DNA of 45,588 nucleotides from a virus (Duplodnaviria > Heunggongvirae > Uroviricota > Caudoviricetes), in IMG/VR virus record IMGVR_UViG_2531839665_000023; one strand, written 5' to 3'. Below, in pieces: positions 7,500 through 9,959 of the stretch (positions within the stretch are counted from its first letter, which is position 1; each line of letters opens with the position of its first letter). The translations under genes and the position numbers were made by a program. The notes under the pieces were generated by a model. It had not been told where the DNA came from and did no database searches. It saw only the letters and a list, made by a program, of their open reading frames with translations.

Positions 7500-7530
7500 C
7501 AGAACACCTTCAATTTTTAACCACAGAACG

Positions 7531-8094
7531 ATGAGGCTAACCGTGGGTAAGTATCACTGGAAAGTAGAAAAACAGCCTGAGTGGTACGTGAAAGCTGTCA
7601 GAAAAACTATCGCAGCGTTGCCGGGTGGTTACGCTGAAGCAGCTGACTGGCTGGATGTAACAGAGAACGCATTATTTAACCGCCTTCGTGCCGATGGCGA
7701 TCAGATTTTCCCGCTGGGATGGGCAATGGTTTTACAGCGTGCGGCTGGCACTCACTACATTGCGGATGCTGTCGCACAGTCTGCTGGTGGGGTGTTCGTA
7801 TCGCTTCCTGAAATTGAGGAAGTAGAGAACGCCGATATAAACCAGCGCCTGCTGGAAGTCATCGAACAGATCGGGAATTACTCAAAGCAGATTCGTTCGG
7901 CAATCGAAGATGGGGTCGTGGAGCCACACGAGCAGACAGCAATTAATGATGAGTTGTATCTGTCAATTTCGAAGCTCCAGGAGCATGCAGCACTGGTCTA
8001 CAAAATCTTTTGCGCTCCAGAAAAGAGTGACGCCCGCGAGTGTGCAGCTCCGGGCGTCGTGGCGTTTTGTGTCTGTGGAGAAACTAACGCATGA
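7531..8094 (+). CDS. Putative CII-like early regulatory protein
   Basis: 187 aa; position directly after cro; family assignment from memory only. Confidence 0.45.
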   Translation: MRLTVGKYHWKVEKQPEWYVKAVRKTIAALPGGYAEAADWLDVTENALFNRLRADGDQIFPLGWAMVLQRAAGTHYIADAVAQSAGGVFVSLPEIEEVENADINQRLLEVIEQIGNYSKQIRSAIEDGVVEPHEQTAINDELYLSISKLQEHAALVYKIFCAPEKSDARECAAPGVVAFCVCGETNA

Positions 8095-8927
8095 ACAGTT
8101 TAACGGCAAATAACCGTTTGTCGCAACAGCTGGTGGTCAGTGTCGCTGAACACCTGTTGTTACGGCATGAATGCAGATTACCAAATCACCTGGCTGTAAG
8201 TAACCACAGAGAACTTTACCTGACTGTGGGGGGCGAGTTGTGCGGGAACTTAACCGCTGGTTTCGTGACGGAAGAGGGCTTTATGTCCATGTTATTCGTT
8301 GGGAACCAGAAACACAGCGCGTTATCTATCTTCGCAAAGACTACCCGCATGAGTGCTTTAGTCCTTTGTGGAAATTCAGGCGTGATTTTGTTGAGTGTGA
8401 AGGACCACCAGCACATTGATTCTGCCATTCCGGGACGTTACACTGTTCAGGCACCTTATAAAGCGGGTGCCGGGATTGGCGTCCTGGAATTGATCAAGGC
8501 GATATATGACGCGCCAGCGTCTTTTTTATCGTCCGCATTTGCTCACATCAAAGTTATGGTGGGCTGGGCGGGGGCATCGAAAGATGCGCCGGTTTCCTTG
8601 ATCACCGGTTACGCCAACCCCGTTCAGTTCACCACCAGCGAAATTGGCGTTTCCGGTGGTGGAAGTATTTCACCGATCAAGGAGGCTGCCATCATGGCTA
8701 CTGTCCCAGCCCTCACTCGTCTGAATGATGAAGACTTACATAAACTCAGTTATGTAACAACTGCACTACGTGCTCTGCGCAAGGTAACTCTTTCGGATCC
8801 GCAGGCGCATCAGGTTCTGGTAGAAACCCTTCTTAACTTGCAGGCTGAACGTATCCGTTTGGTGGATAAGGCTAATTTTCATATTCACCGTCTCCTGAAT
8901 ATCAGCGGAGGGCATCGTCATGCTTAA
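8091..8927 (+). CDS. Hypothetical protein; ORF of doubtful extent
   Basis: Track ORF; N-terminal third is low-complexity and an alternative frame (8240-8419) reads more protein-like; C-terminal part more convincing. Confidence 0.35.
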   Translation: MNSLTANNRLSQQLVVSVAEHLLLRHECRLPNHLAVSNHRELYLTVGGELCGNLTAGFVTEEGFMSMLFVGNQKHSALSIFAKTTRMSALVLCGNSGVILLSVKDHQHIDSAIPGRYTVQAPYKAGAGIGVLELIKAIYDAPASFLSSAFAHIKVMVGWAGASKDAPVSLITGYANPVQFTTSEIGVSGGGSISPIKEAAIMATVPALTRLNDEDLHKLSYVTTALRALRKVTLSDPQAHQVLVETLLNLQAERIRLVDKANFHIHRLLNISGGHRHA

Positions 8928-9156
8928 TCCGTTGAGCCTCAATATTCGCCGTTTACTTCAGCGTAAAAAAACATCAATTCCTACAGTTGGGCAGTGGTAC
9001 ACCACGCCTGCAGGGCATGTTCTACGTGTTAGCCTGGTTGACCGTGAATGTCAGAAAGTGATTTGTGAACCGCTGGGCCGTAATTACCGCGTCAGTATGC
9101 CGCTTATAGCCTTTCGCTCCGGAAAAAACACGAAGCATCTCGGAGGTGCTGCATGA
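8920..9156 (+). CDS. Hypothetical small phage protein
   Basis: 78-aa ORF coupled to the downstream replication gene. Confidence 0.45.
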   Translation: MLNPLSLNIRRLLQRKKTSIPTVGQWYTTPAGHVLRVSLVDRECQKVICEPLGRNYRVSMPLIAFRSGKNTKHLGGAA

Positions 9157-9959
9157 GTATGGAGCTGATGGTTAAAGCGATGAAAATTCGAGTGGGAAAT
9201 CCATTGCGAAAACTGGTTCTGATTAAGCTGGCTGATAATGCCAGCGATCAGGGCGAGTGCTGGCCCAGCTATCAGCATATCGCTGATCAGTGCGAGATTA
9301 GCAAACGTTCTGTGATGAATCATATTGCGGCCCTCTGTGAGTCCGGGCTGGTAAAAAAAGTCACCAGGAAAGGTGAAAAAGGTAACTCAAGTAATATCTA
9401 TCTTCTTCATCTTGATGGTGCAGGAGATTCACTAGGGGGTAGTGCAAATAATTCACTATCTGGTGCAGCAAATTCACCAGGTAGTGCAGGAGTTGCACCA
9501 GGGGGTAGTGCAGGAGATTCACCCAGAACCAGTCACTCTTTTGAACCAGTCAATGAACCAATAGCTGTTGGTGCATCTGCTGATGAGTCTGTGCGAGTTC
9601 GTTCAAACCGACCGGAATACTCTCCGGAGTTTGAGCAGGCATGGCTGGCATATCCCAAACGTGCTGGTGGCAATTCAAAATCTGCAGCCTTCAAAGCCTG
9701 GAAAGCCCGTTTGAATGAGGGGGTAAAACCCGAAACCATGCTGGAAGGTGTGAAACGCTACGCGGGCTGGGTATCTGCGATGGGTAACAGCGGCACACAA
9801 TTTGTGAAACAGGCTGTCACGTTCTTTGGTCCGGATCGTCATTTCGAAGAATCCTGGGAAGTTCCTGCGGTATCTGCAGCCAGACGCGAGGACCCGTACT
9901 TCAAAGCCAGTTACGACAACGTGGACTACAGCCAGATCCCGGCAGGATTCAGGGGGTAA
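9153..9959 (+). CDS. Replication initiation protein, O-like, N-terminal winged HTH
   Basis: HTH segment (SYQHIADQCEISKRSVMNHIAAL), Gly/Ser-rich linker encoded by iteron-like repeats, C-terminal replication-protein-like region. Confidence 0.75.
   Translation: MSMELMVKAMKIRVGNPLRKLVLIKLADNASDQGECWPSYQHIADQCEISKRSVMNHIAALCESGLVKKVTRKGEKGNSSNIYLLHLDGAGDSLGGSANNSLSGAANSPGSAGVAPGGSAGDSPRTSHSFEPVNEPIAVGASADESVRVRSNRPEYSPEFEQAWLAYPKRAGGNSKSAAFKAWKARLNEGVKPETMLEGVKRYAGWVSAMGNSGTQFVKQAVTFFGPDRHFEESWEVPAVSAARREDPYFKASYDNVDYSQIPAGFRG
9418..9525 (+). repeat. Five imperfect ~21-bp direct repeats (iteron-like) inside the initiator gene; candidate origin
   Basis: GGTGCAGGAGATTCACTAGGG / GGTAGTGCAAATAATTCACT / GGTGCAGCAAATTCACCAGGT / AGTGCAGGAGTTGCACCAGGG / GGTAGTGCAGGAGATTCACCC, followed by GAACCAGTCA repeats. 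Confidence 0.6.

Follow-up and report, generated by a model that had tools for sequence, protein, structure and literature searches.

The 278-codon frame in the early region of an SfV/e14-type Escherichia coli prophage as a composite of small genes and an RNA immunity module

The described systems closest to the locus analyzed here include the immI region of phages P1 and P7, the immunity region of phage P4, and the isrK region of Gifsy-1. The immunity factor of P4 is an RNA, and this CI RNA acts through premature transcription termination, which differs from the mode proposed below. The C4/icd/ant system of P1 has been described in PMC8201110 and the papers cited there. In the isrK-orf45-anrP region of Gifsy-1, the nucleotides of orf45 are conserved and its amino acids are not; orf45 is translated, and it is the translation, not the sequence, that is required for the next gene; in addition, a form in which orf45 is fused to the downstream frame has been noted in S. 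dysenteriae (PMC4825925). The subject of this analysis is a 278-codon open reading frame (ORF) on the + strand, from ATG 8091 to the stop at 8927, in the viral record IMGVR_UViG_2531839665_000023, whose 45,588 nucleotides are called the window throughout. The window is an SfV/e14-type lambdoid prophage of Escherichia coli, and the ORF lies in its immunity and early region. The identity to E. coli JB2 is 100% over positions 7500-9200, and 534 complete E. coli genomes contain 80% or more of this stretch.

The ORF is orf37 of Shigella phage SfV, which carries the label 'immunity region' in GenBank because the ORF of the P4 immunity region shares the Phage_ASH family with it. The window and SfV are about 98-99% identical over orf36-orf39 (U82619.2) and have the same gene order, and the product of 8382-8927 is 98% identical to its translated SfV counterpart. 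The SfV record annotates the 278-aa ORF and neither the DUF4222 gene nor the RNAs described below, and the record of phage Ayreon repeats this annotation of the 278-aa ORF. A preliminary description of the window, made from its letters alone, had doubted that the 278-aa ORF encodes a single protein and had drawn attention to a 59-codon ORF in another frame. Both ORFs are present, the small one offset by 2 nt from the long one, and the doubt was justified. We conclude, with a probability of about 0.85, that the 278 codons are an uninterrupted frame running over several separate elements of the early operon rather than one protein gene. The frame is a composite of four parts: a ymfM-like segment, an alternative frame of a DUF4222 gene, an RNA immunity module, and a 77-codon ORF. 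Each of these is of an already known kind and DUF4222 is already in RefSeq, and for this reason the finding itself is ordinary.

The RNA immunity module and the Phage_ASH family

The DNA between 8416 and 8693 is an RNA immunity module of the type found in P1/P7 immI, P4 CI, and Gifsy-1 IsrK. It has the following elements.

8416-8444, + strand: predicted sigma-70 promoter, with -35 TTGATT at 8416-8421, a 17-nt spacer, and -10 TACACT at 8439-8444
8451-8527, + strand: isrK-like leader RNA (Rfam RF01394), with box b1 at 8476-8482, box a1 at 8491-8499, and a terminator
8552-8639, + strand: C4-type antisense RNA (Rfam RF01695), with loop a' at 8595-8604 and loop b' at 8611-8617
8644-8685, + strand: C4 target boxes b2 (8644-8650) and a2 (8675-8683), found by complementarity and covariation

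In the Rfam scan, the isrK model scored 64.2 bits against a gathering threshold of 50 (E 1e-12), and the C4 model 82.3 bits against a threshold of 45 (E 7e-16), the latter over model positions 1-87 of 87. The isrK match begins 7 nt past the -10 hexamer, and the leader closes with a terminator-like stem at 8508-8521 and a run of T that extends to 8527. The two promoter hexamers are invariant across the aligned loci. Both RNAs were also detected above threshold in all the other 'Ash' loci that we fetched (C. braakii, SfV, Hafnia phage yong2, an Stx2 phage, and phiP27), and the same Rfam models found neither isrK nor C4 in K-12 e14. Neither the promoter nor the two RNA genes in the middle of the ORF had been part of the preliminary description.

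Complementarity was searched with a script, and the C4 loops a' and b' were found to match both the leader boxes a1 and b1 and the downstream boxes a2 and b2 over 7-9 nt. Box a2 overlaps AAGGAGG (8679-8685), the Shine-Dalgarno sequence of ATG 8694. When 12 loci were aligned, 92% of the cells between the C4 loops and a2/b2 were paired, versus 67% in shuffled controls, and 12 of the 16 pairs showed compensatory changes. The figures for the leader boxes a1/b1 were 98.4% versus 67%, with compensatory changes in 14 of 16 pairs. Control alignments with the partners slid by 1-3 columns left just 31-54% of the cells paired. In E. coli, what look like two protein alleles, LELIK/SLIT/SPIKE and LEMLS/SDNA/SLLSE, are boxes a1, a', and a2 changing jointly. 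Among viral contigs aligned over window positions 8480-8690, the a1/a'/a2 combination occurs in at least two specificity types in E. coli prophages and at least seven across phages, examples being GATCAAGG, GTTATCGG, GCATACGG, CAACATAG, CACCAAAG, GCACATG, and CGCAAGAG; the b boxes are of three types. This variety of boxes would correspond to many heteroimmune RNA switches.

By analogy with P1/P7, P4, and Gifsy-1, the module promoter would fire at about 8451 and give a short isrK-like leader that ends at the intrinsic terminator, and transcripts reading through it would be processed to the C4 antisense RNA. The C4 loops would then pair with b2 and a2, and the pairing with a2 would hide the ribosome-binding site of ATG 8694. 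In this way, translation of the 77-codon ORF and of the genes coupled to it, the replication gene included, would be repressed on module transcripts. The leader boxes a1 and b1, acting as decoy or as partner, may compete with or cooperate in the C4 pairing.

The likeness to P1/P7 immI extends from the Rfam family to the layout, with two loops facing two box pairs, one pair upstream and the other over the ribosome-binding site of the next ORF; moreover, P1 and P7 are heteroimmune through co-varying specificity alleles, as seen in window-type modules. The window also departs from P1/P7 in several respects. The 77-aa product is similar to no family detected, P1 icd/ant themselves having been outside the direct comparison; the module belongs to the early operon, with a CII-like gene on one side and the replication genes on the other; and a long open frame lies over it. 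Gifsy-1 shares with the window an isrK leader with its terminator, a C4-like RNA (processed in Gifsy-1), and an upstream ORF that overlaps the C4-like RNA, starts from the conserved ATGGTGGG, and has conserved nucleotides and variable amino acids; translational coupling to the next gene, established in Gifsy-1, would by analogy hold in the window too. Unlike Gifsy-1, the window has its orf45 equivalent in frame with and fused to the downstream ORF, and the frame is open far upstream. In P4, the immunity region likewise gives C4 and isrK matches under an ORF that belongs to Phage_ASH, whereas its genomic context differs.

Pfam Phage_ASH (PF10554) matches residues 117-210 of the long product, equivalent to 8439-8720, at 67.8 bits against a cut-off of 26, and this span coincides with isrK, C4, and the target boxes. 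No coding signal was found in it. Among 53 distinct close relatives, the segregating sites of 8421-8693 were spread evenly over the three codon positions (35/39/34), and the variant codons were 15 synonymous and 89 non-synonymous. In five divergent loci, the ratio of non-synonymous to synonymous polymorphism (pN/pS) in the three frames of this stretch was 0.78, 0.87, and 0.93, compared with 0.48, 0.97, and 1.28 in the Rha-type gene downstream. In yong2, indels of 1 and 2 nt shift the frame locally within the module and the nucleotides are still conserved. Gifsy-1, VT2-Sakai, PA2, and a phage of Klebsiella carry the module between genes, in DNA without annotation; there the annotated gene starts at the conserved ATG, and the frame closes 24-138 nt ahead of it, or 24-30 nt in the first three. 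The invariant 'Ash' residues also fall on the nucleic acid elements: IDS on the -35 hexamer TTGATT (8416-8421), Y on the -10 hexamer TACACT (8439-8444), MVGW on the 5' end of C4, and EAAIMAT on the Shine-Dalgarno sequence with the start codon. In addition, the obsolete P4 ORF 'cI gene product (AA 1-137)' scores 59.7 bits with Phage_ASH and overlaps the C4 match. Collectively, the lack of coding signal, the overlap with the RNAs, the intergenic copies, and the P4 'cI' ORF indicate that Phage_ASH appears to be, at least largely, a translation of this RNA region.

The DUF4222 gene and the ymfM-like frame across it

Upstream of the module, the following features share the DNA.

8091-8396, + strand: ymfM-like part of the long frame, with GGAG at 8077-8080 and ATG at 8091 (tblastn, alignments, phrog_1170)
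8228-8233, + strand: run of six G, a Shine-Dalgarno-like site for DUF4222 (sequence; GGAGG-type sites at the same place in homologues)
8240-8419, + strand: DUF4222 gene, 59 aa, GTG start (Pfam, PHROG, RefSeq, ratio of non-synonymous to synonymous substitution rates, AlphaFold2 model)

As the preliminary description had supposed, the 59-codon ORF is a genuine protein gene. It has a start codon and a ribosome-binding site of its own, and the G-rich site that the description had pointed to is the run of six G, 6 nt ahead of GTG 8240. The product matched Pfam DUF4222 (PF13973) at 50.9 bits against a cut-off of 27 (E 1.1e-13, profile positions 5-51 of 53) and phrog_1343 over positions 1-59 of its 59 residues (E 2.5e-36). 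RefSeq annotates a 'DUF4222 domain-containing protein' (WP_071593530.1) at exactly 8240-8419 on identical DNA. The 51 database homologues, from Escherichia, Salmonella, Klebsiella, Citrobacter, Kluyvera, and Kosakonia, all have 44-102 aa, most of them 59-72 aa, and nearly all copies have an ATG, GTG, or TTG start after a GGAGG-like site. Compared with the PF13973 proteins, the window product is a full-length match of the same size with the conserved residues present, and no difference was found. Across 48 loci from different species, the ratio of non-synonymous to synonymous substitution rates (dN/dS) was 0.11 in the DUF4222 frame, with dS of about 1.4 (saturated), versus 1.6-2.0 in the other two frames; the nucleotide diversity at third codon positions was 0.46-0.49.

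An AlphaFold2 model built with the family alignment showed a small beta-barrel followed by a helix, with a pLDDT of 84.8 (confident), and Foldseek returned weak matches to KOW, Tudor, and SH3 barrels, the best with E 0.056. The predicted fold class is thus a small SH3/KOW-like beta-barrel, and no function is claimed for it. A sequence search of the PDB with the DUF4222 profile gave nothing meaningful (best E 0.82), NCBIfam had no match for the long ORF, the 59-codon ORF, or the YmfM variants, and in the literature we found neither functional work on DUF4222 nor any report of its overlap with ymfM.

The preliminary description had also offered a frameshifted gene as an explanation, and this was not borne out, since DUF4222 is full length and has its own start, Shine-Dalgarno site, and stop in the homologues. 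A programmed frameshift between ymfM and DUF4222 was considered and rejected: the start of DUF4222 has no slippery heptamer ahead of it, the frame of DUF4222 meets a stop 3-114 nt upstream of this start, and the homologues have their own start and Shine-Dalgarno site. Two contigs depart from the usual sequence at this point. In IMGVR_UViG_2681813225_000024, G7 stands in place of G6 and the ymfM-like N-terminal part is fused in frame to DUF4222, giving a 109-aa ORF, and IMGVR_UViG_2579778647_000005 has a 1-nt deletion within the GTG start of DUF4222. Both could be sequencing errors or homopolymer slippage variants. At the other end of the gene, the DUF4222 stop TGA (8417-8419) falls within the -35 hexamer TTGATT of the predicted module promoter, and in Hafnia phage yong2, the long frame has two ATG codons shortly ahead of the DUF4222 stop.

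Judged by its sequence, the segment from 8091 to about 8396 is homologous to, though diverged from, e14 ymfM (SfiC, a division inhibitor), a relationship of the N-terminal third that the preliminary description did not have. The gene that follows ymfL in K-12 e14 is ymfM, which encodes 112 aa and now bears the name 'cell division inhibitor YmfM', and the long frame of the window has the same position, the same ATGA overlap with ymfL, the same first residues, and a homologous N-terminal part. The YmfM homologues of other genera aligned by tblastn in one in-frame segment, from residue 1 to about 95, and phrog_1170 (YmfM) matched the window frame over residues 47-98 only, with the first 49 residues unmatched; Pfam had no match for the YmfM variants. 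Upstream of DUF4222, the ymfM part (about 56 codons) is a conserved domain, with a dN/dS of 0.28 versus 1.2-1.35 in the other frames of the 48 loci. The last 53 or so codons of ymfM are an alternative frame of DUF4222, in e14 as in the window. The preliminary description had called the N-terminal third low-complexity and rich in Cys and Leu; Leu is indeed frequent (16 of the first 97 residues), whereas Cys occurs only 3 times in these 97 residues and the segment is not strongly low-complexity.

The window copy has features that e14 ymfM does not share. The ymfM family has a conserved stop at DUF4222 codon 53-56, present in 39 of 41 other sequences, where the codon at the Ile of 'REIE' is one of the rare ATA, GTA, or TTA and these create the stop. 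The window has TGT/GTG there, with GTG 8397-8399 occupying the position of the family stop, and therefore its frame runs on. Moreover, the PxPG motif has been lost, 18 nt have been deleted in frame, and no sign of purifying selection was seen, the polymorphism of the N-terminal part among close relatives being 12 non-synonymous and 3 synonymous changes, which looks neutral on these few sites. In Hafnia phage yong2, the YmfM N-terminal domain is a stand-alone ORF of 59-65 aa with its own stop, and a 275-aa gene lies between it and the DUF4222/RNA module; the YmfM N-terminal domain can therefore be separated, as a module, from the open frame over DUF4222. An oop-like antisense RNA was sought in 8094-8240, where there was no Rfam match and no terminator.

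Readings of the long frame

Some observations weigh against the composite reading and are gathered here. The predicted promoter fits the consensus at 8 of 12 positions and was not called by a consensus promoter scan. 'Ash' counts as a protein family in Pfam and RefSeq and is included in three PHROG families. ATG 8091 has a GGAG site and overlaps ymfL in an ATGA. Finally, the long frame is free of stops in all eight loci in which DUF4222 lies directly upstream of the module, with 0-5 stops in each of the other two frames of the module, mostly 1-5, and some translation of it is therefore plausible. If the amino-acid sequence mattered, the ORF would be one functional protein, SfV Orf37 or a YmfM-Ash fusion. 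This is how SfV and Ayreon are annotated, 78 of 80 related viral contigs keep the frame intact, and the Phage_ASH score would fit such a protein. We nevertheless consider it unlikely: 8421-8693 has neither codon periodicity nor a dN/dS signal, RNA families with covariation cover the same DNA, yong2 is frame-shifted there with its nucleotides conserved, the frame is closed in Gifsy-1, VT2-Sakai, and PA2, what look like protein variants are a1, a', and a2 changing in concert, and over the DUF4222 overlap the long frame is under no constraint. Once again, the absence of a coding signal counts against the RefSeq model, in which DUF4222 is accompanied by a separate 'ash family protein' of 181-192 aa and which we hold to be very improbable. 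It is RefSeq's own annotation, and the first codon of the phiP27 L16 ORF aligns with GTG 8397, the start used in phrog_3960. Set against this, the RefSeq start of the protein differs between near-identical genomes, being GTG 8382 in one and ATG 8349 in another; none of the three candidate starts has a recognizable Shine-Dalgarno site; and the family-defining residues (IDS, Y, MVGW, EAAIMAT) are the -35, the -10, the C4 5' end, and the Shine-Dalgarno sequence plus ATG. A frameshifted or decaying gene with the small ORF arising by chance is scarcely credible. The relaxed appearance of the ymfM-like part, with its 12 non-synonymous to 3 synonymous changes, lost PxPG, and 18-nt deletion, would suit decay, but in about 50 loci strong purifying selection acts on a full-length DUF4222, and no homologue alignment requires a frameshift.

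A further possibility is compatible with the composite reading and would add to it: the long frame may be translated only as a bridge whose sequence does not matter. Ribosomes coming from ymfL/ymfM on early-promoter transcripts would read across DUF4222, the isrK terminator, C4, and the masked ribosome-binding site and stop at 8927 beside the next start, and the replication genes would stay coupled while the C4 block and polarity were bypassed. In 43 distinct e14-type sequences, no stop occurs in the alternative frame over the first 52 DUF4222 codons, versus 85.5 expected from synonymous resampling, and the control frame has 144 versus 147 expected. At four risky positions for Leu, Val, or Ile, where the next base is A or G, only NTT or NTC is used, and Leu before C is mostly CTG. 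There is no amino-acid constraint on the long frame over DUF4222, where its dN/dS is 1.8, equal to that of the third frame. In the eight loci with DUF4222 directly upstream, the frame of ATG 8694 is stop-free for 450-657 nt upstream, across C4, the leader, the promoter, and all of DUF4222, back to a ymfM-like or other upstream start; in other contexts, four of five loci show 2-3 stops in this frame. Given the DUF4222 protein sequence, the probability of an open frame was 0.06-0.11 in each of six testable module-bearing loci. The overlapping stop and start codons that link ymfL to the replication gene also favor a bridge, and Gifsy-1 orf45 is a precedent for a frame in which translation rather than sequence is needed for the next gene (PMC4825925).

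On the other side, the loci are related by descent and their counts are not independent, retrieval by protein is biased toward open frames, the ribosomes of DUF4222 itself could supply the coupling in e14, and the frame is broken upstream in 2 of 80 near-identical contigs. We rate the bridge as possible but tentative, because the loci share ancestry and some were retrieved by protein similarity. The open frame in eight of eight loci, together with the stop avoidance in e14, suggests that translation was selected and the product was not. The more general proposition, that selection for translation itself keeps open the frame one base off DUF4222, i.e., the ymfM tail in e14 and the whole 278-codon frame here, seems to us rather doubtful on present grounds. 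The homologue comparison that the preliminary description had called for gave a divided answer: the alternative frame is kept as a protein (dN/dS 0.11), and the long frame is kept as an open frame only, with zero stops and no amino-acid constraint across the overlap. The expectation of overlapping small genes in the region was correct.

Neighboring genes and the K-12 annotation of ymfM

The remaining features of the operon are listed here.

7531-8094, + strand: ymfL, CII-like regulator gene (NCBIfam phage_reg_YmfL, 1.9e-50; Pfam Phage_CP76; RefSeq)
8556-8558, + strand: ATG equivalent to the Gifsy-1 orf45 start (M156, invariant in the alignment; phrog_4908)
8694-8927, + strand: 77-codon ORF (MATVPALTRL...), with Shine-Dalgarno AAGGAGG and the ATG 8 nt after it
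8920-9156, + strand: 78-codon ORF, SfV orf38 (phrog_1153, E 5e-40; RefSeq hypothetical protein)
9153-9959, + strand: replication gene, its ATG overlapping the stop of the 78-codon ORF

RefSeq starts ymfL at 7543; the ymfL stop and the start of the long ORF overlap in the sequence ATGA. From ymfL to the replication gene, stop and start codon overlaps link the genes in series, including that between the stop of the 77-codon ORF and the ATG of the 78-codon ORF. In E. coli JB2, the replication gene downstream of the region is interrupted by IS100 (istA/istB), and the ORF of the window, 9153-9959, is intact.

The 77-codon ORF is likely a real coding gene, located where P1 has icd/ant and Gifsy-1 has anrP. 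Its Shine-Dalgarno sequence and ATG 8694 are conserved, and this is the annotated gene start in Gifsy-1, VT2-Sakai, and PA2. A coding signal is present, though weak, with 11 synonymous and 16 non-synonymous variant codons and the least variation at codon position 2. Pfam has no match for the 77-aa product, homologues occur in SfV-like phages only, and relatives with the same module have a Rha/Ant-like antirepressor gene in its place. ATG 8556 is in frame with it and gives a 123-codon ORF, and phrog_4908 (123 aa) aligns with residues 156-278 of the long product. The 78-codon product matched DUF4222 by BLASTP with E 0.018 over 45 residues, and phrog_1153 and phrog_1343 cross-match in their members. 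By this similarity it looks like a distant DUF4222-like paralogue, and two DUF4222-like genes would therefore flank the RNA module.

The overlap also touches the annotation of K-12. The curated record (NC_000913.3, 1203822-1204180) annotates ymfM as a 'cell division inhibitor' and does not annotate the nested 59-aa DUF4222 ORF, which in K-12 e14 has a TTG start with AAGGAG 8 nt upstream. The automatic RefSeq annotation of other MG1655 assemblies and of about 2000 e14-carrying genomes has DUF4222 and not ymfM. The paper that assigned filamentation to ymfM expressed ORF DNA holding DUF4222 codons 1-53, and it reports no frame-specific mutants; the published ymfM constructs contain, and the published deletion removes, both ymfM and DUF4222. 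The SOS-inducible division inhibitor credited to ymfM could be the nested, unannotated, strongly conserved DUF4222 protein, and the conflict between curated and automatic annotation bears on the identity of the SfiC division inhibitor.

This K-12 conflict, the Phage_ASH artefact, and the overprinting of ymfM and DUF4222 with stop avoidance are by-products worth keeping. With the widely propagated name 'ash family protein' and with PF10554, hundreds of prophage records seem to mislabel an RNA immunity switch as a transcription factor, and the allelic 'protein variants' of E. coli are RNA immunity specificities. The locus adds to the P1/P4/Gifsy-1 type of RNA switch an early-operon version, placed directly upstream of the replication genes. 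The pair ymfM/DUF4222 is a clean case of overprinting, with one frame conserved as a protein and the other conserved only in being open, with its stop fixed. If the frame is indeed held open for translation, ribosomes would be carried from the CII-like gene over an overprinted small gene and, in SfV-type phages, also over a terminator and an antisense-masked ribosome-binding site, and the replication genes would remain tied to the early promoter, out of reach of the RNA immunity block.

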